The position numbers were made by a program, and so were the translations under genes. Under the pieces are notes generated by a model. The model saw only the letters and a list, made by a program, of their open reading frames with translations. It did no database searches and had not been told where the DNA came from. Positions 1 through 11,753 of a stretch of 11,753 nt of DNA are shown piece by piece. Source of the DNA: a virus (taxonomy: Duplodnaviria; Heunggongvirae; Uroviricota; Caudoviricetes); IMG/VR virus record IMGVR_UViG_2531839531_000006; one strand, 5' to 3'. How positions within the stretch are numbered: the stretch's first letter is position 1; each line of letters begins with the position of its first letter.

Positions 1-1284
1 TTACTTCTTCGCCTCTGCAACCACTTTACTACCCACGCCGCGGTTATTGTATTCCCACATGCGGTTGTAGTTAGTGTCATTCAGATTGCGCTGTATTTCG
101 TCGTTATCATCTACGCTGCCGGTATTACCCGCAAACGGACGATTAGAGATCACCGCATCGGCCCACGGTTTAGCCGTGTTAAAACCTTCGTTGATGGCGC
201 TATCACGGATCACCACCTGACCGTTGGTATTGGCATCAACATCCAGCGAGCGGCCCAGTTGCGCCACACCATCACCGAAAGCATTGAAACGGCTGTTTAC
301 GGCGAGGAAACCGTAGTAAATGTTGGACAGCGTAGCCGGTGCAAACACATACGCTTCTTGCTGAGTACGTGAGTTCACCACGCGGAATTCGGTGTTATCG
401 AACACCACTGCGCCGCGACCAGAAACGATATCCACATCCCCTTCAATGTAGCTGTTGGTCACCAGCGTACGCGGCTGATGGTTGGTTTCCAGACGGTTCT
501 GCACACCGCTGTTGGTGACAAAGAAGGTGTTCTGACGACCGAGAATGTTAACGTTGTTAATCTGTACCAGGTCACCATCAGTACGCAGTGCCACCGCCGG
601 ATGGTTACCTGCATCTACGCTATCGCCCAGCGTGTTTTCGATGGTCAGATTTTGCAGTTGCAGGCCATTGTTTTGTGACCAGAAGACCGCAGAGCAGAGA
701 ACACCGATACTGTCGCTGCGTTTGCTCTGGCAGCTATCGTACATATACCACGCTGGTTTACCTGGCATATATTTGCCGCGCGGGTTGACGTCGTGACGCC
801 AGTCGGCAGGGCTCATGCCACCATCAAGGGAAAGCCCAATCTTCACATCAATCGGTTTTTCACCTGTACCGTACAGAGTAATTCCACCCGGAGCGGCAGG
901 GACATATACCGTTCCCTGATACTCACCAGGCATCACGGCAATATACTGGCGCTTGTTGGTACGCTTGATAATTGCCGCATCTACCGCCGCCTGAATCGTG
1001 GTATGCGTTACACCTTGAGTGCCCGCCGGGCCGACAACAAAGTCAGGTTGCGCAGGCAGGGTAATCGGGGAAGGATTCCACGCTGCAGCACCTGGTGTCA
1101 GGGATGCAAAATAGTGTTGAGCATCGAAATTCTGCGCTTCTTTTGCCGACAGAATCGGGCGAGAAGAGGTACCAGGCGCGGTTTGATCAGAAGGACGTTG
1201 ATCGGGCGGGGTTGAGCTACAGGCGGTCAGCGTCACGCCAAAAGCCAATGCCAGCGCCAGACGGGAAACTGAAAATGTGTTCAC
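1..1284 (-). CDS. ybhC: Outer-membrane lipoprotein YbhC (pectinesterase-fold putative acyl-CoA thioesterase); host gene flanking lambda attB
   Basis: Complete 427-aa ORF with stop at 1-3. N-terminus MNTFSVSRLALALAFGVTLTAC is a lipoprotein signal peptide with an LTAC lipobox. Sequence matches my recollection of E. coli YbhC, the gene next to lambda attB. Confidence 0.85.
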   Translation of the reverse strand: MNTFSVSRLALALAFGVTLTACSSTPPDQRPSDQTAPGTSSRPILSAKEAQNFDAQHYFASLTPGAAAWNPSPITLPAQPDFVVGPAGTQGVTHTTIQAAVDAAIIKRTNKRQYIAVMPGEYQGTVYVPAAPGGITLYGTGEKPIDVKIGLSLDGGMSPADWRHDVNPRGKYMPGKPAWYMYDSCQSKRSDSIGVLCSAVFWSQNNGLQLQNLTIENTLGDSVDAGNHPAVALRTDGDLVQINNVNILGRQNTFFVTNSGVQNRLETNHQPRTLVTNSYIEGDVDIVSGRGAVVFDNTEFRVVNSRTQQEAYVFAPATLSNIYYGFLAVNSRFNAFGDGVAQLGRSLDVDANTNGQVVIRDSAINEGFNTAKPWADAVISNRPFAGNTGSVDDNDEIQRNLNDTNYNRMWEYNNRGVGSKVVAEAKK

Positions 1285-1330
1285 AGGTTGCTCCGGGCTA
1301 TGAAATAGAAAAATGAATCCGTTGAAGCCT

Positions 1331-1345
1331 GCTTTTTTATACTAA
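1331..1345. other. attL core (15-bp lambda att common core GCTTTTTTATACTAA)
   Basis: Exact 15-bp core at 1331..1345. Host-type sequence (B arm) lies to the left and lambda P'-arm sequence to the right, which is the BOP' arrangement of attL. Confidence 0.9.
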
Positions 1346-1370
1346 GTTGGCATTATAAAAAAGCATTGCT

Positions 1371-1418
1371 TATCAATTTGTTGCAACGAACAGGTCACTA
1401 TCAGTCAAAATAAAATCA
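1371..1418. promoter_or_regulatory. attL P' arm: IHF H' site and Int arm-type binding sites
   Basis: TATCAATTTGTTG at 1371..1383 fits the IHF consensus (WATCAAnnnnTTR). CAGGTCACTAT (1391..1401) and CAGTCAAAAT (1402..1411) fit Int arm-type sites, located between the core and the end of int as in lambda. Confidence 0.7.
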
Positions 1419-2489
1419 TTATTTGATTTCAATTTTGTCCCACTCCCTGCCTCTGTCATCACGATACTGTGATGCCATGGTGTCCGACTTATGCCCGAGA
1501 AGATGTTGAGCAAACTTATCGCTTATCTGCTTCTCATAGAGTCTTGCAGACAAACTGCGCAACTCGTGAAAGGTAGGCGGATCCCCTTCGAAGGAAAGAC
1601 CTGATGCTTTTCGTGCGCGCATAAAATACCTTGATACTGTGCCGGATGAAAGCGGTTCACGACGAGTAGATGCAATTATGGTTTCTCCGCCAAGAATCTC
1701 TTTGCATTTATCAAGTGTTTCCTTCATTGATATCCCGAGAGCATCAACATGCAATGTTGTTGGGATGGCAATTTTTACGCCTGTTTTGCTTTGCTCGACA
1801 TAAAGATATCCATCTACGATATCAGACCACTTCATTTCGCATAAATCACCAACTCGTTGCCCGGTAACAACAGCCAGTTCCATTGCAAGTCTGAGCCAAC
1901 ATGGTGATGATTCTGCTGCTTGATAAATTTTCAGGTATTCGTCAGCCGTAAGTCTTGATCTCCTTACCTCTGATTTTGCTGCGCGAGTGGCAGCGACAGG
2001 GTTTGTTGTTATATGGCCTTCAGCTATTGCCTCTCGGAATGCATCGCTCAGTGTTGATCTGATTAACTTGGCTGACGCCGCCTTGCCCTCGTCTATGTAT
2101 CCATTGAGCATTGCCGCAATTTCTTTTGTGGTGATGTCTTCAAGTGGAGCATCAGGCAGACCCCTCCTTATTGCTTTAATTTTGCTCATGTAATTTATGA
2201 GTGTCTTCTGCTTGATTCCTCTGCTGGCCAGGATTTTTTCGTAGCGATCAAGCCATGAATGTAACGTAACGGAATTATCACTGTTGATTCTCGCTGTCAG
2301 AGGCTTGTGTTTGTGTCCTGAAAATAACTCAATGTTGGCCTGTATGGCTTCAGTGATTGCGATTCGCCTGTCTCTGCCTAATCCAAACTCTTTACCCGTC
2401 CTTGGGTCCCTGTAGCAGTAATATCCATTGTTTCTTATATAAAGGTTAGGGGGTAAATCTCGGCGCTCATGACTTCGCCTTCTTCCCAT
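1419..2489 (-). CDS. int: Lambda-type integrase (tyrosine recombinase)
   Basis: 356-aa ORF beginning MGRRRSHERRDLPPNLYIRNNGYYCYRDPRTGKEFGLG, matching lambda Int in length and sequence as I recall it. It lies beside attL and overlaps xis by 23 nt as in lambda. Confidence 0.95.
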   Translation of the reverse strand: MGRRRSHERRDLPPNLYIRNNGYYCYRDPRTGKEFGLGRDRRIAITEAIQANIELFSGHKHKPLTARINSDNSVTLHSWLDRYEKILASRGIKQKTLINYMSKIKAIRRGLPDAPLEDITTKEIAAMLNGYIDEGKAASAKLIRSTLSDAFREAIAEGHITTNPVAATRAAKSEVRRSRLTADEYLKIYQAAESSPCWLRLAMELAVVTGQRVGDLCEMKWSDIVDGYLYVEQSKTGVKIAIPTTLHVDALGISMKETLDKCKEILGGETIIASTRREPLSSGTVSRYFMRARKASGLSFEGDPPTFHELRSLSARLYEKQISDKFAQHLLGHKSDTMASQYRDDRGREWDKIEIK

Positions 2490-2685
2490 TTCTGATCCTC
2501 TTCAAAAGGCTACCTGTTACTGGTCGATTTAAGTCAACCTTTACCGCTGATTCGTGGAACAGATACTCTCTTCCATCCTTAACCGGAGGAGGGAATATCC
2601 TGCACTCGCGTACCCATCGACGAACTGTTTCAAGGCTTCTTGGGCGTCGCTGGCGTGCGTTCCACTCCTGAAGTGTCAAGTACAT
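2467..2685 (-). CDS. xis: Excisionase
   Basis: 72-aa ORF MYLTLQEWNARQRRPRSLETVRRWVRECRIFPPPVKDGREYLFHESAVKVDLNRPVTGSLLKRIRNGKKAKS, matching lambda Xis in length and sequence as recalled. It overlaps the int start. Confidence 0.95.
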   Translation of the reverse strand: MYLTLQEWNARQRRPRSLETVRRWVRECRIFPPPVKDGREYLFHESAVKVDLNRPVTGSLLKRIRNGKKAKS

Positions 2686-2710
2686 CGCAAAGTCTCCGCA
2701 ATTACACGCA

Positions 2711-2733
2711 AGAAAAAACCGCCATCAGGCGGC
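2711..2733 (-). terminator. Putative rho-independent terminator (minus-strand sense) just upstream of xis
   Basis: Plus-strand CCGCC-ATCA-GGCGG (2719..2732) gives a 5-bp GC stem with a 4-nt loop; on the minus strand it is followed by TTTTTTCT (plus-strand A-run 2711..2718). Confidence 0.4.
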
Positions 2734-2783
2734 TTGGTGTTCTTTCAGTTCTTCAATTCGAATATTGGTTACGTCTGCATGTG

Positions 2784-2984
2784 CTATCTGCGCCCACAGC
2801 ATCCAGTGGTCATAGCAGTCGCTGATGTTCTCGGCTTCGATAACTCTGTTGAATGGTTCTCCATTCCATTCACCTGTGACTCGGAAGTGCATTTATCATC
2901 TCCATAAAACAAAACCCGCCGTAGCGAGTTCAGATAAAAGAAATCCTCGTCAGTGCGAGGATGCTGTTCATTGCTGCTATACAC
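2784..2984 (-). CDS. Hypothetical small protein (66 codons, GTG start); possibly non-coding
   Basis: ORF in the six-frame track. The start codon is GTG (plus strand CAC at 2982..2984) with only a weak GAGAG upstream. No recognisable motif. It sits in the non-lambda cassette. Confidence 0.2.
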   Translation of the reverse strand: MYSSNEQHPRTDEDFFYLNSLRRVLFYGDDKCTSESQVNGMENHSTELSKPRTSATAMTTGCCGRR

Positions 2985-3134
2985 TTTTTTGCTCTCAACG
3001 TAAGCGGTAGCCCATTCTGTTGGGTTGGTGCAGTTGCTTTTAGGAAATGCTATTTACCCCTTAAATGTCGGCTGAAAGAGCTAAAATCCATGCAAAAAAT
3101 TTACGCAATTTTGTGTATTATTGTGCAGTAAGTA

Positions 3135-3737
3135 ATGAGCTATTTTCTGCGCAAAAAATGGATGGTAAATTTGTCCGGGTCAGGAAAAATTTTATGGGCG
3201 CTAAACATGAAAAAAGATTCGTATCCTTATTTGATTTGCATGACAGTTTCAGGGCTGATCTTTATTTTCCTTTTCTTCTGGTGGCGGGCAGATATCTACA
3301 GGGTCACGTTTCTTAATCAGAGTATATCCCACTATTACATTCTGTTTAGCATGGGAATAGCTTTTCTGTTATCTCTGTTTTGGGTTAAGAAGGGGATAGT
3401 AAAACAAAGAGGCTGGAAGAGTCTGTCAGCATACCTTAAGGTTTATGCAGGGATGTGCATATTTGCTGGATTTTTTCTGATTATACCCCTTACGACACTA
3501 ACTTATTTTTTGCCTGGAGAGACATCGTCTTATGTTGCACCGTATCGGTATACTTCCGGTAGTTCAAAAAGTTGTTCTGGAGCTGAGGTGGATGACCCCG
3601 ATCTACATGAGAATATTCGCATTTGCTATCCGTATGGCAATTATGAGTACGATAATATTATCTATGTTGAAAAGAAAATTAATATATTAGGTGCGGTAGT
3701 GACATATGCACAGACCGCGCGTGATGATACTGAATGA
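3135..3737 (+). CDS. Hypothetical integral membrane protein (3 predicted TM helices plus a ~70-aa C-terminal soluble domain); cargo gene in the ea-region slot
   Basis: 200-codon ORF on the strand opposite the early operon, in A+T-rich DNA where chance ORFs of this length are unlikely. Three hydrophobic segments: LICMTVSGLIFIFLFFWW, YYILFSMGIAFLLSLFWV, VYAGMCIFAGFFLIIPLTTLTYFL. Start is ambiguous: in-frame ATGs at 3135, 3162 and 3207, none with a strong Shine-Dalgarno. A hairpin terminator follows the stop. Confidence 0.65.
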   Translation: MSYFLRKKWMVNLSGSGKILWALNMKKDSYPYLICMTVSGLIFIFLFFWWRADIYRVTFLNQSISHYYILFSMGIAFLLSLFWVKKGIVKQRGWKSLSAYLKVYAGMCIFAGFFLIIPLTTLTYFLPGETSSYVAPYRYTSGSSKSCSGAEVDDPDLHENIRICYPYGNYEYDNIIYVEKKINILGAVVTYAQTARDDTE

Positions 3738-3771
3738 TATAGTATATAGCGGGCAAGTTTTAGTTAATTTA

Positions 3772-3809
3772 TCGAGGTAATATAATTTACCTCGACTCGT
3801 TTGTTCTGG
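3772..3809 (+). terminator. Putative rho-independent terminator for the plus-strand membrane-protein gene
   Basis: Perfect 9-bp inverted repeat TCGAGGTAA (3772..3780) / TTACCTCGA (3787..3795) with loop TATAAT, followed by T-rich CTCGTTTGTTCT, about 35 nt after the stop at 3737. Confidence 0.45.
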
Positions 3810-3947
3810 TATTAATATTTCGCTTTACGACCGATTTTTATCTGATGATATCATGCGGTTTTCATATACTGACTTACTGTCTTTTCTCCGTTAGCGATTT
3901 TCTCCTGCTCAGCGATGATTTTATCTTTGGCTTCTAGTTAATTTCGC

Positions 3948-4169
3948 TCACTTCGAACCTCTCTGTTTACTGATAAGCTCCAGATCCTCCTGGCAACTTG
4001 CACAAGTCCGACAACCCTGAACGACCAGGCGTCTTCGTTCATCTATCGGATCGCCACACTCACAACAATGAGTGGCAGATATAGCCTGGTGGTTCAGGCG
4101 GCGCATTTTTATTGCTGTGTTGCGCTGTAATTCTTCAATTTCTGATGCTGAATCAATGATGTCTGCCAT
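3948..4169 (-). CDS. TraR/DksA-family C4 zinc-finger protein (lambda orf73-like RNA polymerase-binding regulator)
   Basis: 73-aa ORF with C35-x2-C38-x17-C56-x2-C59 spacing, the TraR/DksA zinc-finger pattern. Size and position are typical of phage TraR homologues upstream of the recombination module. Confidence 0.8.
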   Translation of the reverse strand: MADIIDSASEIEELQRNTAIKMRRLNHQAISATHCCECGDPIDERRRLVVQGCRTCASCQEDLELISKQRGSK

Positions 4170-4218
4170 CTTCCATTAATCCCTGAATTGTTGGTTAATA
4201 CGCTTGAGGGTGAATGCG

Positions 4219-4245
4219 AATAATAAAAAAGGAGCCTGTAGCTCC
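4219..4245 (-). terminator. Putative rho-independent terminator (minus-strand sense) upstream of the TraR-like gene
   Basis: GGAGC-CTGTA-GCTCC hairpin (4231..4245); on the minus strand it is followed by TTTTTTATTATT (plus-strand A-rich 4219..4230). Confidence 0.4.
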
Positions 4246-4267
4246 CTGATGATTTTGCTTTTCATGT

Positions 4268-4579
4268 TCATCGTTCCTTAAAGACGCCGTTTAACATGCC
4301 GATTGCCAGGCTTAAATGAGTCGGTGTGAATCCCATCAGCGTTACCGTTTCGCGGTGCTTCTTCAGTACGCTACGGCAAATGTCATCGACGTTTTTATCC
4401 GGAAACTGCTGTCTGGCTTTTTTGATTTCAGAATTAGCCTGACGGGCAATGCTGCGAAGGGCGTTTTCCTGCTGAGGTGTCATTGAACAAGTCCCATGTC
4501 GGCAAGCATAAGCACACAGAATATGAAGCCCGCTGCCAGAAAAATGCATTCCGTGGTTGTCATACCTGGTCTCTCTCAT
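4268..4579 (-). CDS. Hypothetical protein (lambda orf61 position; 103 codons from the first ATG, or 71 codons from the internal ATG at 4483)
   Basis: ORF whose start overlaps the stop of the upstream ORF by 20 nt. By collinearity the lambda orf61 annotation would end near 4394, but this frame continues to 4268. No motif recognised. Confidence 0.45.
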   Translation of the reverse strand: MRETRYDNHGMHFSGSGLHILCAYACRHGTCSMTPQQENALRSIARQANSEIKKARQQFPDKNVDDICRSVLKKHRETVTLMGFTPTHLSLAIGMLNGVFKER

Positions 4580-4751
4580 CTGCTTCTGCTTTCGCCACCA
4601 TCATTTCCAGCTTTTGTGAAAGGGATGCGGCTAACGTATGAAATTCTTCGTCTGTTTCTACTGGTATTGGCACAAACCTGACTCCAATTTGAGCGAGGCT
4701 ATGTGCCATCTCGATACTCGTTCTTAACTCAACGGGAGATGCTTTGTGCAT
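4560..4751 (-). CDS. Lambda orf63-like hypothetical protein
   Basis: 63-codon ORF at exactly the position and length of lambda orf63, using the offset fixed by exo/bet/gam. Confidence 0.65.
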   Translation of the reverse strand: MHKASPVELRTSIEMAHSLAQIGVRFVPIPVETDEEFHTLAASLSQKLEMMVAKAEADERDQV

Positions 4752-4906
4752 ACAGCTCCCCGTTTATTATTTATCTCCTCAGCCAGCCGCTGTGCTTTCA
4801 GGGGATTTCGGATAACAGAAAGGCCGGGAAATACCCAGCCTCGCTTCGTAACGGAGTAGACGAAAGTGATCGTGCCTACGCGGATATTATCGTGAGGATG
4901 TTTCAT
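4724..4906 (-). CDS. Lambda orf60a-like hypothetical protein
   Basis: 60 codons from [10 protein letters not shown] (the track ORF begins two codons earlier, at 4912). The stop overlaps the next ORF and the start overlaps the exo stop by 4 nt, as in lambda. Confidence 0.6.
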
Positions 4907-5583
4907 CGCCATTGCTCCCCAAATACAAAACCAATTTCAGCCAGTGCCTCGTCCATTTTTTCGATGAACTCCGGCACCATCTCGTCAAAACTCGCTATAT
5001 ACTTTTCATTCCGCTCAATCACGACATAATGCAGGCCTTCACGCTTCATACGCGGGTCATAGTTGGCAAAGTACCAGGCATCTTTTCGCGTCACCCACAT
5101 GCTGTACTGCACCTGGGCCATGTAAGCCGACTTTATGGCCTCGAAACCACCGAGCCGGAATTTCATGAAATCCCGGGAGGTAAACGGGCATTTCAGCTCA
5201 AGGCCATTGCCGTCACTGCATAAACCATCGGGAGAGCAGGCGGTGCGCATACTTTCGTCGCGATAGATGATCGGGGATTCAATAACATTTACGCCGGAAG
5301 TGAACTCAAACAGGGTTCTGGCGTCGTTCTCGTACTGTTTTCCCCAGGCCAGCGCTTTAGCGTTAACTTCCGGAGCCACACCGGTGCAAACCTCAGCTAG
5401 CAGGGTGTGGAAGTAGGACATTTTCATGTCAGGCCACTTCTTTCCTGATCGGGGCTTTGCTATCACGTTGTGAACTTCTGAAGCGGTGATGACGCCGAGC
5501 CGTAATTTGTGCCATGCATCATCCCCCTGTTCGACAGCTCTCACGTCGATCCCGGTACGCTGCAGGATAATGTCCGGTGTCAT
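4903..5583 (-). CDS. exo: Lambda exonuclease (Red-alpha, 5'-3' dsDNA exonuclease)
   Basis: 226-aa [43 protein letters not shown], matching lambda Exo in length and sequence as recalled. 4-nt overlap with bet. Confidence 0.95.
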
Positions 5584-6365
5584 GCTGCCACCTTCTGCTC
5601 AGTGGCTTTCTGTTTCAGGAATCCAAGAGCTTTCACTGCTTCGGCCTGTGTCAGTTCTGACGATGCGCGAATGTCGCGGCGAAATATCTGGGAACAGAGC
5701 GGCAATAAGTCGTCATCCCATGTTTTATCCAGGGCGATCAGCAGAGTGTTAATCTCCTGCATGGTTTCATCGTTAACCGGAGTGATGTCGCGTTCCGGCT
5801 GACGTTCTGCAGTGTATGCAGTATTTTCGACAATGCGCTCGGCTTCATCCTTGTCATAGATACCAGCAAATCCGAAGGCCAGACGGGCACACTGAATCAT
5901 GGCTTTATGCCGTAACATCCGTTTGGGATGCGACTGCCACGGTCCGGTGATTTCTCTGCCTTCGCGGGTTTTGAATGGTTCGCGGCGGCATTCATCCATC
6001 CACTCGGTAACGCAGATCGGATGATTGCGGTCTTTGCGGTAAATCCGGCATGTGCAGGATTCGTTGTCCTGTTCAAAGTCCATGCCGTCAAACTGCTGGT
6101 TTTCGTTGATGATGCGGGACCAGCCATCAACGCCCACCACCGGAACGATGCCGTTCTGCTTATCAGGGAAGGCGTAAATTTCTTTCGTCCACGGATTAAG
6201 ACCGTACTGGTTGGCGACGATCAGCAATGCGATGAACTGCGCATCGCTGGCATCACCTTTAAATGCCGTCTGGCGAAGAGTGGTGATCAGTTCCTGTGGG
6301 TCGACAGAATCCATGCCGACTCGTTCAGCCAGCTTCCCAGCCAGCGTTGCGAGTGCTGTACTCAT
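5580..6365 (-). CDS. bet: Red-beta single-strand annealing protein
   Basis: 261-aa [69 protein letters not shown], matching lambda Bet in length and sequence as recalled. Confidence 0.95.
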
Positions 6366-6370
6366 CCGTT

Positions 6371-6787
6371 TTATACCTCTGAATCAATATCAACCTGGTG
6401 GTGAGCAATGGTTTCAACCATGTACCGGATGTGTTCTGCCATGCGCTCCTGAAACTCAACATCGTCATCAAACGCACGGGTAATGGCTTTTTTGCTGGCC
6501 CCGTGGCGTTGCAAATGATCGATGCATAGCGATTCAAACAGGTGCTGGGGCAGGCCTTTTTCCATGTCGTCTGCCAGTTCTGCCTCTTTCTCTTCTCGGG
6601 CGATCTGCTGGTAGTGACGCGCCCAGCTCTGAGCCTCAAGACGATCCTGAATGTAATAAGCGTTCATGGCTGAACTCCTGAAATAGCTGTGAAAATATCG
6701 CCCGCGAAATGCCAGGCTGATTAGGAAAACAGGAAAGGGGGTTAGTGAATGCTTTTGCTTGATCTCAGTTTCAGCATTAATATCCAT
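6371..6787 (-). CDS. gam: Gam, RecBCD inhibitor (long form; internal start gives GamS)
   Basis: 138-aa [64 protein letters not shown], matching lambda Gam in length and sequence as recalled. Confidence 0.95.
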
Positions 6788-6885
6788 TTTTTATAAGCGT
6801 CGACGGCTTCACGAAACATCTTTTCATCGCCAATAAAAGTGGCGATAGTGAATTTAGTCTGGATAGCCATAAGTGTTTGATCCAT
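6742..6885 (-). CDS. kil: Kil (FtsZ-targeting host-killing protein)
   Basis: 47 codons from [47 protein letters not shown], with ATG at 6883..6885. Overlaps the gam start by 46 nt and cIII by 32 nt as in lambda. The 89-codon track ORF is an upstream extension. Confidence 0.85.
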
Positions 6886-7018
6886 TCTTTGGGACTCCTG
6901 GCTGATTAAGTATGTCGATAAGGCGTTTCCATCCGTCACGTAATTTACGGGTGATTCGTTCAAGTAAAGATTCGGAAGGGCAGCCAGCAACAGGCCACCC
7001 TGCAATGGCATATTGCAT
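6854..7018 (-). CDS. cIII: CIII (FtsH inhibitor that stabilises CII)
   Basis: 54 codons from [54 protein letters not shown], with ATG at 7016..7018. The 78-codon track ORF is an upstream extension. Confidence 0.85.
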   Translation of the reverse strand: MQYAIAGWPVAGCPSESLLERITRKLRDGWKRLIDILNQPGVPKNGSNTYGYPD

Positions 7019-7090
7019 GGTGTGCTCCTTATTTATACATAACGAAAAACGCCTCGAGTGAAGCGTTATTGGTATGCGGTAAAACCGCAC

Positions 7091-7459
7091 TCAGGCGGCC
7101 TTGATAGTCATATCATCTGAATCAAATATTCCTGATGTATCGATATCGGTAATTCTTATTCCTTCACTACCATCCATTGGAGGCCATCCTTCCTGACCAT
7201 TTCCATCATCCCAGTCGAACTCACAAACAACACCATATGCATTTAAGTCTTTCGAAAGTGCTATAAGCAGAGCATGTTGCGCCAGCATGATTAATACAGC
7301 ATTTAATAAAGAGCCGTGTTTATTGAGTCGGTATTCAGAGTCTGACCAGAAATTATTAATCTGGTGAAGTTTTTCCTCTGTCATTACGTCATGGTCGATT
7401 TCAATTTCTATTGATGCTTTCCAGTCGTAATCAATGATGTATTTTTTGATGTTTGACAT
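7091..7459 (-). CDS. ea10: Ea10 early protein
   Basis: 122-aa ORF MSNIKKYIIDYDWKASIEIEIDHDVMTEEKLHQINNFW, at the lambda ea10 position and length. Confidence 0.85.
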   Translation of the reverse strand: MSNIKKYIIDYDWKASIEIEIDHDVMTEEKLHQINNFWSDSEYRLNKHGSLLNAVLIMLAQHALLIALSKDLNAYGVVCEFDWDDGNGQEGWPPMDGSEGIRITDIDTSGIFDSDDMTIKAA

Positions 7460-7479
7460 CTGTTCATATCCTCACAGAT

Positions 7480-7505
7480 AAAAAATCGCCCTCACACTGG
7501 AGGGC
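7480..7505 (-). terminator. Rho-independent terminator (minus-strand sense) between ral and ea10, in the lambda tL2 region
   Basis: GCCCTC-ACACTG-GAGGGC hairpin (7488..7505), followed on the minus strand by TTTTTT (plus-strand A-run 7480..7485). Confidence 0.5.
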
Positions 7506-7567
7506 AAAGAAGATTTCCAATAATCAGAACAAGTCGACTCCTGTTTAGTTACGAGCGACATTGCTCC

Positions 7568-7595
7568 GTGTATTCACTCGTTGGAATGAATACAC
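7568..7595. repeat. Perfect 9-bp inverted repeat GTGTATTCA-N10-TGAATACAC
   Basis: Read directly from the sequence, in the ea10-ral intergenic region. No flanking T-run on the minus strand, so it is not a typical terminator. Confidence 0.5.
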
Positions 7596-7662
7596 AGTGC
7601 AGTGTTTATTCTGTTATTTATGCAAAAAATAAAGGCCACTATCAGGCAGCTTTGTTGTTCTG

Positions 7663-7842
7663 TTAACCAAGTTCTCTGGCAATCATTGCCGTCGTTCGTA
7701 TTGCCCATTTATCGACATATTTCCCATCTTCTATTACAGGAAACATTTCTTCAGGCTTAACCATGCATTCCGATTGCAGCTTGCATCCATTGCATCGCTT
7801 GAATTGTCCACACCATTGATTCTTATCAATAGTCGTAGTCAT
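7663..7842 (-). CDS. ral: Ral (restriction alleviation), C-terminally truncated: 59 codons ending at an in-frame TAA; the same frame continues KQNNKAA to a TGA at 7642, the lambda-length 66 codons
   Basis: Translates MTTTIDKNQWCGQFKRCNGCKLQSECMVKPEEMFPVIEDGKYVDKWAIRTTAMIARELG then TAA (plus-strand TTA at 7663..7665). ATG is at 7840..7842. Not in the supplied track because it is under 60 codons. Confidence 0.7.
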   Translation of the reverse strand: MTTTIDKNQWCGQFKRCNGCKLQSECMVKPEEMFPVIEDGKYVDKWAIRTTAMIARELG

Positions 7843-7912
7843 ACGGATAGTCCTGGTACTGTTCCATTACATCCTGCGGATGCTCTTCGAACTCTTCAAA
7901 TTCTTCTTCCAT
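7826..7912 (-). CDS. Lambda orf28-like small acidic protein
   Basis: 28 codons MEEEFEEFEEHPQDVMEQYQDYPYDYDY; its stop overlaps the ral start, at the lambda orf28 position. Confidence 0.55.
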   Translation of the reverse strand: MEEEFEEFEEHPQDVMEQYQDYPYDYDY

Positions 7913-8036
7913 ATATCACCTTAAATAGTGGATTGCGGTAGTAAAGATTGTGCCTGTCTTTTAACCACATCAGGCTCGGTGGTTCTCGTGTACCCCTACA
8001 GCGAGAAATCGGATAAACTATTACAACCCCTACAGT

Positions 8037-8591
8037 TTGATGAGTATAGAAATGGATCCACTCGTTATTCTCGGACGAGTGTTCAGTAATGAACCTCTGG
8101 AGAGAACCATGTATATGATCGTTATCTGGGTTGGACTTCTGCTTTTAAGCCCAGATAACTGGCCTGAATATGTTAATGAGAGAATCGGTATTCCTCATGT
8201 GTGGCATGTTTTCGTCTTTGCTCTTGCATTTTCGCTAGCAATTAATGTGCATCGATTATCAGCTATTGCCAGCGCCAGATATAAGCGATTTAAGCTAAGA
8301 AAACGCATTAAGATGCAAAACGATAAAGTGCGATCGGTAATTCAAAACCTTACAGAAGAGCAATCTATGGTTTTGTGCGCAGCCCTTAATGAAGGCAGGA
8401 AGTATGTGGTTACATCAAAACAATTCCCATACATTAGTGAGTTGATTGAGCTTGGTGTGTTGAACAAAACTTTTTCCCGATGGAACGGGAAGCATATATT
8501 ATTCCCTATTGAGGATATTTACTGGACTGAATTAGTTGCCAGCTATGATCCATATAATATTGAGATAAAGCCAAGGCCAATATCTAAGTAA
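8037..8591 (+). CDS. sieB: SieB superinfection exclusion protein (membrane protein; an internal in-frame start would give Esc)
   Basis: 184-aa ORF of exactly lambda sieB length and position, convergent with and abutting the N stop. Hydrophobic segments MYMIVIWVGLLLLSP and VFVFALAFSLAI. Confidence 0.9.
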   Translation: MMSIEMDPLVILGRVFSNEPLERTMYMIVIWVGLLLLSPDNWPEYVNERIGIPHVWHVFVFALAFSLAINVHRLSAIASARYKRFKLRKRIKMQNDKVRSVIQNLTEEQSMVLCAALNEGRKYVVTSKQFPYISELIELGVLNKTFSRWNGKHILFPIEDIYWTELVASYDPYNIEIKPRPISK

Positions 8592-8915
8592 CTAGGTAAG
8601 AGGAATCGATTTTCCCTTAATTTTCTGGCGTCCACTGCATGTTATGCCGCGTTCGCCAGGCTTGCTGTACCATGTGCGCTGATTCTTGCGCTCAATACGT
8701 TGCAGGTTGCTTTCAATCTGTTCGTGGTATTCAGCCAGCACTGTAAGGTCTATCGGATTCAGTGCGCTTTCTACTCGTGATTTCGGTTTGCGATTCAGCG
8801 AGAGAATAGGGCGGTTAACTGGTTTTGCGCTTACCCCAACCAACAGGGGATTTGCTACTTTCCATTGAGCCTGTTTCTCTGCGCGACGTTCGCGGCGGCG
8901 TGTTTGTGCATCCAT
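8592..8915 (-). CDS. N: N transcription antitermination protein
   Basis: 107 codons from MDAQTRRRERRAEKQAQWKVANPLLVGVSAKPVNRPILSLNRKPKSRVESALNPIDLTVLAEYH, including the arginine-rich RNA-binding motif. Shine-Dalgarno AGGAGA precedes the ATG at 8913..8915. The 137-codon track ORF is an upstream extension. Confidence 0.9.
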   Translation of the reverse strand: MDAQTRRRERRAEKQAQWKVANPLLVGVSAKPVNRPILSLNRKPKSRVESALNPIDLTVLAEYHEQIESNLQRIERKNQRTWYSKPGERGITCSGRQKIKGKSIPLT

Positions 8916-9025
8916 CTGGATTCTCCTGTCAGTTAGCTTTGAGTAACGCGCCGTGATGCTTATCCCCACGGTTGCTGTCTTGCAGCTGCATTTCGCGCTA
9001 CTCAAAGCTTTCTGCTTTGAATGCT

Positions 9026-9056
9026 GCCCTTCTTCAGGGCTAAATTTTTAAGAGCC
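9026..9056 (-). promoter_or_regulatory. nutL (boxB hairpin plus boxA)
   Basis: Minus-strand boxB GCCCTGAAGAAGGGC (9026..9040) is identical to lambda boxB as I recall it. boxA-like GGCTCTTAA (9048..9056) lies 7 nt upstream on the transcript. Confidence 0.8.
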
Positions 9057-9096
9057 TCACCTTCAATGGTGGTTAGTGCGTCCTGCTGACGGGCTA

Positions 9097-9125
9097 AGTA
9101 TCACCGCTAGTGGTATTTGTGTCAA
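9097..9125 (-). promoter_or_regulatory. pL promoter (-35 TTGACA, 17-bp spacer, -10 GATACT)
   Basis: Minus-strand TTGACA (9120..9125) and GATACT (9097..9102) with a 17-nt spacer, the lambda pL hexamers, upstream of nutL and N. Confidence 0.8.
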
Positions 9126-9159
9126 CACCGCTAGAGATATTTTATCACCGCAAATGGTT
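9099..9159. promoter_or_regulatory. OL1-OL2-OL3 CI/Cro operators
   Basis: Three 17-bp sites with TATCACCGC-type half-sites: TATCACCGCTAGTGGTA (9099..9115), CAACACCGCTAGAGATA (9123..9139), TATCACCGCAAATGGTT (9143..9159). They overlap pL as in lambda. Confidence 0.75.
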
Positions 9160-9345
9160 ATCTGTATGTTTTTTATATGGATTTATTTTTTCGAGTGAGT
9201 GTATTGCCTCGGCGATGTAAGGAGAGATCAGAATTGCGTTGTTTAGTGAGTGTAACCGGCTCATTTAAACCGTCTGGTCTGTTTCCTCCGGCTCTACAAA
9301 AATAATGTCCATCATTTTTGAACTGCGCCCCAGATCTTGGACAAC

Positions 9346-10209
9346 TTATGCAGCCTGACTCAATCGATATTGTACCGGGCTAAGACCGCCAAGTTTTTCC
9401 TTTATCCTCAATTGATTATAATAGTTTATGTAATCAATGATGTCTCGCTTTAAGTCCTCCACATTTTTATATTCATTGAGGTAATAACATTCTGATTTCA
9501 ATGTTCCAAAAAAGCTCTCTATAACTGCATTATCAAGACAATTTCCCCGGCGAGACATACTCTGGACTATACCGCTATCCTTTAACCATCGTTGCCACCG
9601 GGACATCTGATATTGCCAACCTTGATCGCTGTGCAGTATGGGGTGTTCATCTTTCGACAGCTGTTTCAGCGCATCCGTAAGCATAGTCTGCACCATTGAA
9701 GGTTGAGGGCGAGTGGCGAGGTTATAGGAAATTATTTCTCCATTATAAAGATCCATGACGGGCGACAAATACAGCTTCTTGCCATTCACTTTAAATTCAG
9801 TGACATCTGTAACCCACTTCTCGTTGGGGCGTTTTGCATCAAAATTGCGTTTCAGGAGATTATCGCAAATTCGTCCTTGTTCTCCTTTATATGAACGGTA
9901 TTTTTTAACGCGGATCAGGCTGCTAATACCCAGTTCCTTCATCAGTTTTCTGACGGTTTTACCATTAAGTAAAACCCCCTCGTTACGACATGCCAGCCTG
10001 ATGCGTCTGTAACCATAGCGGCCTTTGTGCTGGTGATAAATTTTCAGCACAAGCGCTCTGGCAGACTGATACCGGTCAGGAGCAGCAAGCCGTCTGACAT
10101 GATAGTAAAATGTACTCCGGGGCAGCCCGGAAACAATTAACAATCGGGACAATGGCCATTCCTGCCTTAGTTCATTCACAATGCTCACTTTTTCCTGAAC
10201 GTTGAGCAT
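9346..10209 (-). CDS. IS3-family transposase OrfB (DDE catalytic domain; expressed as OrfAB fusion by -1 frameshift)
   Basis: 287-aa ORF containing HSDQGWQY, RKGNCLDNAV and YYN motifs typical of IS3/IS150 OrfB. Overlaps orfA by 25 nt in the -1 frame. Confidence 0.85.
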   Translation of the reverse strand: MLNVQEKVSIVNELRQEWPLSRLLIVSGLPRSTFYYHVRRLAAPDRYQSARALVLKIYHQHKGRYGYRRIRLACRNEGVLLNGKTVRKLMKELGISSLIRVKKYRSYKGEQGRICDNLLKRNFDAKRPNEKWVTDVTEFKVNGKKLYLSPVMDLYNGEIISYNLATRPQPSMVQTMLTDALKQLSKDEHPILHSDQGWQYQMSRWQRWLKDSGIVQSMSRRGNCLDNAVIESFFGTLKSECYYLNEYKNVEDLKRDIIDYINYYNQLRIKEKLGGLSPVQYRLSQAA

Positions 10210-10691
10210 GTTTTCTGCTGAACCAAGGCTTTCAGCTTTTTTAAGTAGGCATTCTCGACCCTGAGTTGTTCAAGTTCTTCTCTCTCATCTTTGGTTAATG
10301 TTGGTAGTGGTGGTGCTGAAATGGCGCTTTTATCCGGCACAGGAATACTCTTTTTATTTTTTCGAATGAAAGCATCTTCGCCATATTTTCTATATTTTTC
10401 AAGCCAGTTGCATACAGTACCAAAGGCTGGTATTCCGTGTTTTACCGCTACTTCACGAACAGAAAAACAGTCATCCACGACTTCTTTTACTACTGTGAGT
10501 TTTAACTCAGCAGAATAGCGTCCTTTTTTACCCGTAAGTATGCTTATCCCATGTTCCCGATAGGCATAAGCCCATTTTCTTACTGTGCAGGGACTGATAC
10601 CGTACATCCTTGCTACAGATTTCAGACTCAACTCTCCCTCCAGGTACTTTTCTGATACTACCTTTTTGAACTCCAATGAAAACTTTTCCAT
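10185..10691 (-). CDS. IS3-family transposase OrfA (HTH plus leucine zipper)
   Basis: 168-aa ORF with an N-terminal helix-turn-helix (SVARMYGISPCTVRKWAYAY) and a C-terminal coiled coil (EELEQLRVENAYLKKLKALV). Confidence 0.85.
   Translation of the reverse strand: MEKFSLEFKKVVSEKYLEGELSLKSVARMYGISPCTVRKWAYAYREHGISILTGKKGRYSAELKLTVVKEVVDDCFSVREVAVKHGIPAFGTVCNWLEKYRKYGEDAFIRKNKKSIPVPDKSAISAPPLPTLTKDEREELEQLRVENAYLKKLKALVQQKTCSTFRKK
10236..10242 (-). other. Programmed -1 ribosomal frameshift heptamer A AAA AAG (orfA to orfB)
   Basis: Plus-strand CTTTTTT at 10236..10242 is AAAAAAG on the coding strand, in the orfA/orfB overlap, as in other IS3-family elements. Confidence 0.7.
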
Positions 10692-10758
10692 GCATCCTCA
10701 GTTTTTGGTCTGGTGTCTAACCTTTGGGGCGCAGTTCATTTTTAATGGACACTATCGT

Positions 10759-11406
10759 ATGAAACACCGGACCTGGATCACTGAAGCTTTACGTCTTCAC
10801 TTTGAAGAACATTTACCCCGGGTTGTGGCCGGGCGTCGCCTGGGTGTACCAAAATCAACAGTTTGTAGTATGTTCGTGCGCTTTCGGAGAGCTGGCCTTT
10901 CGTGGCCTTTGCCCGCAGGCATGTCGGAGCAGGAACTTGATGCCTGCCTTTACGGACAATTTTCCACGGTACCAGTCGTACGTCCTGAAAGCACCGTTAT
11001 ATCCGAAGCCCCCGTGGTAAAAAAACGTCCCCGGCGGCCCAACTTCCCTTATGAGTTTAAAATCGCCTTAGTGGAGCAGTCACTGCAGCCCGGAGCCTGT
11101 GTGGCGCAGATCGCCCGGGAAAACGGAATCAACGATAACCTGCTCTTCAACTGGCGCCATCAATACCGGAAAGGTGGCCTGCTGCCTTCCGGAAAAAATA
11201 TGCCGGCACTGCTTCCCGTGACGTTAACGCCGGAGCCGGATAATAAAATCCCGGCCCCCGCACAGGAACCAGAGCAGATAAATACACCGTCCGACAGTCT
11301 GTGTTGTGAGCTGGTTCTGCCGGCCGGAACTCTCAGGCTTAAAGGTAAACTGACGCCGGCGTTATTACAGACACTTATCCGCGAAATAAAAGGGAGCAGC
11401 CACTGA
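10759..11406 (+). CDS. IS66-family Orf1 (TnpA-like accessory protein); start codon uncertain
   Basis: C-terminal part (RPRRPNFPYEFKIALVEQSLQPGACVAQIARENGINDNLLFNWRHQYRKGG ... CELVLPAGTLRLKGKLTPALLQTLIREIKG) is typical of IS66 Orf1. First in-frame ATG outside the IS3 element is at 10759 (MKHRTW...) and lacks a good Shine-Dalgarno. The 273-codon track ORF begins inside the IS3 inverted repeat and is an artefact. Confidence 0.5.
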   Translation: MKHRTWITEALRLHFEEHLPRVVAGRRLGVPKSTVCSMFVRFRRAGLSWPLPAGMSEQELDACLYGQFSTVPVVRPESTVISEAPVVKKRPRRPNFPYEFKIALVEQSLQPGACVAQIARENGINDNLLFNWRHQYRKGGLLPSGKNMPALLPVTLTPEPDNKIPAPAQEPEQINTPSDSLCCELVLPAGTLRLKGKLTPALLQTLIREIKGSSH

Positions 11407-11753
11407 TGATATCTCTCCCTGCAGGTTCGCGTATCTGGCTGGTTGCAGGTATCACCGATATGCGAAATGGCTTTAACGGCCTGGCATCAAAAGTTCAGAA
11501 CGTCCTGAAGGATGACCCGTTCTCCGGACACCTGTTCATCTTCCGCGGACGCCGGGGTGACCAGATAAAAGTGTTGTGGGCTGACAGTGACGGACTGTGC
11601 CTCTTCACCAAACGCCTGGAGCGGGGCCGCTTCGTCTGGCCAGTCACCCGTGACGGCAAGGTGCACCTTACTCCGGCTCAGTTATCCATGCTTCTTGAAG
11701 GTATCAACTGGAAGCACCCGAAACGAACGGAACGCGCTGGAATCCGCATATAA
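11406..11753 (+). CDS. IS66-family TnpB (Orf2)
   Basis: 115-aa ORF MISLPAGSRIWLVAGITDMRNGFNGLASKVQNVLKDDPFSGHLFIFRGRRGDQIKVLWAD, matching IS66-family TnpB as I recall it. Its ATG overlaps the orf1 TGA (TGATG). Stop is at the window end. Confidence 0.85.
   Translation: MISLPAGSRIWLVAGITDMRNGFNGLASKVQNVLKDDPFSGHLFIFRGRRGDQIKVLWADSDGLCLFTKRLERGRFVWPVTRDGKVHLTPAQLSMLLEGINWKHPKRTERAGIRI

Follow-up and report, generated by a model that had tools for sequence, protein, structure and literature searches.

The window, by which we mean the whole 11,753-nucleotide stretch of DNA analyzed here, carries N, sieB, orf28, ral, ea10 and the cIII thermoregulator in an order collinear with the early-left operon of phage lambda. 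The location of ral in this pL operon means that the gene matters to an infecting or induced phage and not to a repressed lysogen. The features of the operon are as follows.

8592..8915, minus strand: N antiterminator, starting MDAQTRRRERR as lambda N does (the listed ORF extends to 9005 from a TTG)
8037..8591, plus strand: sieB (superinfection exclusion B), upstream of ral, by ORF and synteny
7826..7912, minus strand: orf28 homologue of 28 aa, overlapping the start of ral as lambda orf28 (34271..34357) does
7663..7842, minus strand: ral coding sequence, 59 codons and a TAA stop, by ORF list, translation and PF11058 match
7091..7459, minus strand: ea10 homologue (DUF2528), the next gene downstream of ral in the pL operon, by ORF, profile and synteny
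6973-7031, minus strand: cIII thermoregulator RNA element (RF01804), intact, with an Rfam score of 88.5 bits

Over positions 1-9254 the window matched, at 99.9% identity, a prophage of E. coli PCP06101 that sits at the lambda attachment site beside ybhC and has the same 59-aa Ral; the window is thus part of a lysogen, as the first-pass annotation had assumed. Homology to the PCP06101 prophage ends at 9254, just to the right of pL/oL, and is followed by insertion sequences.

about 9302-10755: IS3-family element with 42-nt imperfect terminal inverted repeats
10185-10691, minus strand: HTH transposase ORF of the IS3-family element
9346-10209, minus strand: rve integrase-core ORF of the IS3-family element
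11406-11753, plus strand: TnpB_IS66, IS66-family genes after the IS3 element

At the corresponding position PCP06101 has immunity genes (a 1038-nt hypothetical gene, cI, cro and cII), and the repressor region of the window prophage may have been displaced or lost.

Translation of 7663..7842 on the minus strand yielded a protein of 59 aa (MTTTIDKNQW...AMIARELG, full sequence MTTTIDKNQWCGQFKRCNGCKLQSECMVKPEEMFPVIEDGKYVDKWAIRTTAMIARELG), which matched the Ral family PF11058 with 146.5 bits (cut-off 25, E = 1.7e-43), while NCBIfam holds no Ral model. The match spans positions 1-59 of the 66 in the profile and so falls short of full-length coverage, whereas lambda Ral spans 1-66; the full-length form scores 162.5 bits. 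In lambda (NC_001416) ral is annotated at 34087..34287 and encodes 66 aa (NP_040622.1), in agreement with the length taken for it in the first-pass annotation, and the contrary case of a lambda Ral that itself has 59 residues did not hold. Beyond the TAA, the translation of 7642..7842 continues as ...ARELG*QNNKAA* to a second stop, TGA at 7644..7642. The ORF and its translation therefore agree with the earlier description of a frame of 59 codons that meets TAA at 7663..7665 and then runs on to the TGA at 7642. The loss of seven residues (66 to 59) also stands, with one correction to the earlier reading of KQNNKAA after the stop: only six sense codons (QNNKAA) follow it, the lysine being the codon that became TAA.

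7663..7665, minus strand: ochre codon TAA at codon 60 (alignment column 256)
7642..7662, minus strand: former codons 61-66 (QNNKAA) and the ancestral TGA, now 3' untranslated, by translation
7732..7734, minus strand: codon 37, ATA (Ile) where lambda has ATG (Met), by alignment

The 361-bp ral region is 98.1% identical to lambda, a degree of homology that takes chance resemblance out of consideration, and a four-way alignment over these 361 bp has GGT TAA CAG in the window against GGT AAA CAG in lambda. At column 256 the window shares a T with mEp332 and with a prophage of E. coli 2018-01-1CC, and lambda has A. The difference in stop position between the window and lambda is one A-to-T transversion at window position 7665 (T on the minus strand, A on the plus strand) that turns Lys60 into an ochre codon, as had been proposed from the window alone. 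The T allele also forms the palindrome GTTAAC, a HpaI/HincII site, at 7661-7666, which lambda lacks there. Apart from K60*, the window protein departs from lambda Ral at a single residue, M37I, which falls in a variable column of the family alignment; this substitution was present in 6 of the 32 sequences with the TAA allele and in 1 of the 74 with AAA.

The frequency of the two alleles was determined by megablast with 40-base queries that had the variable base at position 20, each 28-base seed having to span the SNP. The counts in the three collections were as follows.

5,426 complete E. coli genomes: TAA in 64 genomes (66 places), AAA in 645 genomes (670 places)
GenBank phage records: TAA in 5 records, representing three phages, AAA in 42 records
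IMG/VR contigs matching the site (108): TAA at 27 loci, AAA at 81 loci

Among complete E. coli genomes, TAA accounts for about 9% of the lambda-type ral copies, and the E. coli carrying it came from human, pig, chicken, cattle, frog and seawater sources. TAA is carried by the phages mEp332 (sequenced independently about 18 years apart, as EF120456 and PV340541), Shigella phage SfI and phi458, and a 180-nt ral is annotated in both mEp332 and SfI. Two unrelated strains, E. coli 2018-01-1CC and PCP06101, have an annotated coding sequence identical to that of the window, and the RefSeq entry WP_023156163.1 ("antirestriction Ral family protein") is the same 59-aa protein from such a coding sequence. 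K60* is thus a naturally segregating ochre allele of lambda-type ral, shared by independent phages and prophages. The allele is already known, in that its protein is in RefSeq and GenBank has contained the allele itself since the record of the mEp332 immunity region.

These records dispose of the implication in the first-pass annotation that the stop might be a lesion or a sequencing error peculiar to this lysogen, given the presence of TAA in mEp332, SfI, phi458, 64 genomes, 27 IMG/VR contigs and RefSeq. An error of sequencing or assembly, with AAA as the true base and a Ral of 66 aa, could be argued from the fact that the 361-bp region has no copy that is 100% identical (the best matches reach 99.7%). 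The single mismatch to these best matches, however, lies at 7624 and not in the stop codon, and TAA recurs in the 64 complete genomes, the 27 IMG/VR contigs and the three phages, one of which was sequenced twice. The explanation by error is effectively refuted already and was rejected; as the allele is common to so many independent records, resequencing is unnecessary.

One strain, E. coli ECO2947 (NZ_CP046259.1), carries both alleles, TAA and AAA, on two prophages (at 4047165 and 913915). A scan of species-representative genomes returned AAA alleles only. Its matches include lambda ral with AAA (L119-L137) in assemblies of Pseudoxanthomonas, Shewanella, Pseudomonas, Nocardioides, Paenibacillus and others, mostly on contigs of about 48.4-48.5 kb or on short low-coverage lambda contigs in unrelated species. 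This lambda ral is almost certainly contamination of the assemblies with lambda control DNA, and for this reason the scan says nothing on host range.

Within a 372-bp segment, TAA was found on at least five flanking haplotypes. Two of these are otherwise identical to AAA haplotypes, one of them lambda's own, and in one TAA haplotype (L114) the stop lies between variant sites some 60 nt upstream and 45 nt downstream. TAA also occurs together with varied N and immunity modules, with a lambda-type N in the window, an Sf6-type N in SfI and phi458, and further repressors beside it in 2018-01-1CC, PCP06101 and mEp332. Recombination is typical of lambdoid phages, and the most likely and parsimonious account is that TAA arose once and then spread among them by recombination, although recurrent mutation is a possible second account. 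The AAA-identical backgrounds and the L114 sites, read as sequence patterns, would be compatible with either recurrence or very short gene-conversion tracts. In their 3' half the common TAA haplotypes match the commonest AAA haplotype exactly, so that no linked marker discriminates between a single and a multiple origin of TAA. If K60* were favored and not neutral, with a changed potency, stability or target range or with the removal of a tail sensed by host defence, several lambdoid lineages would have retained the allele, or it would have arisen in them more than once; we regard such an advantage as improbable.

To place the missing residues, Ral proteins of Escherichia, Salmonella, Citrobacter, Kluyvera, Cronobacter, Providencia, Proteus, Pantoea and Erwinia were compared in alignments of 29 and 32 sequences. 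All invariant or near-invariant columns in both alignments lie at or before Leu58, the conserved positions being W10, C11, C17, C20, C26, M27, P30, D44, W46, R49-T50-T51, M53-I54, R56 and L58. The window Ral holds every conserved residue of the family, including the cysteines C11, C17, C20 and C26 and the block W46-x2-R49-T50-T51-x-M53-I54-x-R56-E57-L58. Past L58 the family has tails of 3-9 residues without a conserved residue (for example GKQNNKAA, EKLKAA, ENQKKQQDA and AAM), which in these alignments are the least conserved part of the protein. The 66-aa form was modeled with AlphaFold2 at low confidence (mean pLDDT 61, pTM 0.40); the model has a C-terminal helix at residues 45-64 with residues 64-66 below pLDDT 50, and suggests that the tail is the poorly defined, fraying end of this helix. 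By this model K60* would cut the helix by about five residues, leaving it, as judged from the alignments, apparently shorter than in any other aligned member of the family. The PDB holds no solved structure of Ral or of a Ral-HsdM complex.

Ral acts on HsdM's N-terminal domain in type IA enzymes such as EcoKI, and in its presence these enzymes methylate unmodified DNA faster, which raises phage survival (PMC12707154; bioRxiv 10.1101/2023.04.06.535777). Restriction alleviation and modification enhancement through HsdM, for type IA systems (EcoKI, EcoBI), are known for the 66-aa lambda Ral (PMC12707154; bioRxiv 10.1101/2023.04.06.535777). Our searches of the literature (Ral, restriction alleviation, HsdM, mEp332) found no work on a truncated or 59-aa lambda-type Ral. 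On the sequence comparisons, K60* is probably a tolerated natural short isoform that has kept its activity, the allele persisting since the tail would be dispensable or nearly so. Because the full conserved core is present, we infer that the 59-aa protein most likely still acts like lambda Ral; its stability or potency may differ from those of the 66-aa form, because its C-terminal end is shorter than that of any natural homologue aligned. Abolished restriction alleviation, one of the outcomes considered in the first-pass annotation, would be the less likely one, in view of the invariant residues that are kept, a tail that is the least conserved part and the natural occurrence of 59-aa homologues.

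Loss of function is nevertheless the alternative that deserves the most weight, and we consider it unlikely but a serious possibility. On this view the seven residues lost would form the end of the C-terminal helix or touch HsdM, so that the 59-aa Ral is unstable or inactive and the gene a young pseudogene, carried along since ral is non-essential, especially in prophages. In its favor, a single residue (G59) is left past L58 where each natural full-length homologue aligned keeps at least three, the modeled helix reaches residue 64, and the IS elements beside oL in the window prophage are consistent with some decay. Disabled forms of ral (an internal deletion, W10* and G19*) also exist in nature. 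At 7 of the 81 AAA-type IMG/VR loci a recurrent internal deletion leaves a remnant (...WTIRTTAMIARELGKQNNKAA or WAIR...) fused downstream of orf28; such alleles are clearly disabled, and since a disabling deletion reaches this number of loci, the frequency of TAA alone is weak evidence of function. Likewise, because ral is non-essential, the presence of the allele in plaque-forming phages is no proof of activity. The other nonsense alleles, W10* and G19*, were singletons each, and TAA is far commoner than these single-base changes, which speaks against loss of function, as do the poor conservation and varied length of the tail across the family and the occurrence of TAA across several haplotypes and backgrounds, among them three inducible or plaque-forming phages. 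A further argument against a pseudogene comes from codons 1-59, where the TAA carriers (n=32) had 6 synonymous and 5 non-synonymous segregating sites and the AAA carriers (n=74) 6 and 10; the TAA carriers thus appear not to be enriched in non-synonymous or disruptive changes, in counts that are small and confounded by recombination.

The former codons 61-66 bear on another possibility, namely that readthrough, by an ochre suppressor or through the leaky context UAA-C, still yields useful amounts of 66-aa Ral. The window and most carriers retain an intact QNNKAA-TGA frame, and C as the fourth base is a comparatively weak context for termination. UAA, however, is the most efficient stop in E. 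coli, its natural readthrough is very low, and a recoding signal was not evident at this site. Moreover, in three carriers from IMG/VR (L116, L117 and L118) codon 61 has itself become a stop (CAG to TAG), which would block the product in these lineages and is consistent with the stretch past TAA being untranslated now. Taken together, we give readthrough hardly any credence.

The DNA 3' of the stop was scanned for regulatory elements, and one terminator-like structure was located close to it.

7635..7650, minus strand: terminator-like hairpin GCTGCC-TGATAG-TGGC followed by a T-run and spanning the ancestral TGA (scan, consensus match only)

At position 7624 the window has a G-to-T change (TTTTTGGCA to TTTTTTGCA on the minus strand) that none of the other sequences compared shows; it is the sole mismatch to the best E. 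coli matches across the 361-bp ral region, and it lengthens the T-run. The resulting TTTTTTGC after the hairpin is likewise confined to the window among the sequences compared.

A selective explanation at the DNA or RNA level would be that the A-to-T change turned TAAACA into the -35-like TTAACA and so created a weak leftward promoter toward ea10 and cIII. The scan does give TTAACA-17-GATAGT at 7666..7638 on the minus strand with 9/12 matches, and the lambda base would score 8/12, under the scan threshold. Against such a promoter, the scan gave one site against a chance expectation of 2.2 +/- 1.8, the -10-like hexamer overlaps the terminator-like hairpin with its T-run, and a second terminator-like site lies ahead of ea10. 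No Rfam element was found over the site, the cIII thermoregulator being the only Rfam match in the window. With a consensus match that is within chance expectation, a promoter in the T allele was set aside as an explanation and kept only as a rival of very low probability.

With the short isoform as the preferred reading, the 59-aa ral is best regarded as an ordinary polymorphism, or standard allele, and not as a defect, lesion or sequencing problem special to one strain. In annotation, a Ral of 59 aa is not to be called a pseudogene by default; the short form makes up about 9% of the lambda-type copies among complete E. coli genomes. K60* is also a ready-made natural truncation for mapping the interaction of Ral with HsdM.

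Compared with known systems, the window Ral is closest in setting to that of lambda, with the same gene in the same order, N - sieB - orf28 - ral - ea10 - cIII, in the pL operon; residues 1-59 are identical save for M37I, and the window protein differs in being without the tail KQNNKAA. The 59-aa Ral proteins of mEp332 (ABO40669.1 / XSB41010.1), SfI (YP_009147488.1) and WP_023156163.1 carry the same K60* allele as the window; that of mEp332 differs in having M37 and M53I, and the carriers (mEp332, SfI and the prophages) differ from the window in flanking haplotypes and in immunity and N modules. Ral proteins of Pantoea and Erwinia (P0048, P0052, P0057 and P0059) also belong to PF11058, are naturally 59 aa long and have 70-74% identity to the window protein. 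They end in ...RELAAM or ...RELAAK, three residues (AAM or AAK after REL) past the invariant Leu where the window has one (G), and they are short partly by a 2-residue N-terminal gap. T7 Ocr and plasmid ArdA, like Ral, shield incoming DNA from type I restriction-modification, and we know of no sequence relation of either protein to Ral. Ocr and ArdA are DNA mimics that block the enzyme, whereas Ral is no such mimic and is reported to stimulate the methyltransferase allosterically, and abortive-infection sensors are triggered by Ocr and ArdA but not by Ral (bioRxiv 10.1101/2023.04.06.535777).
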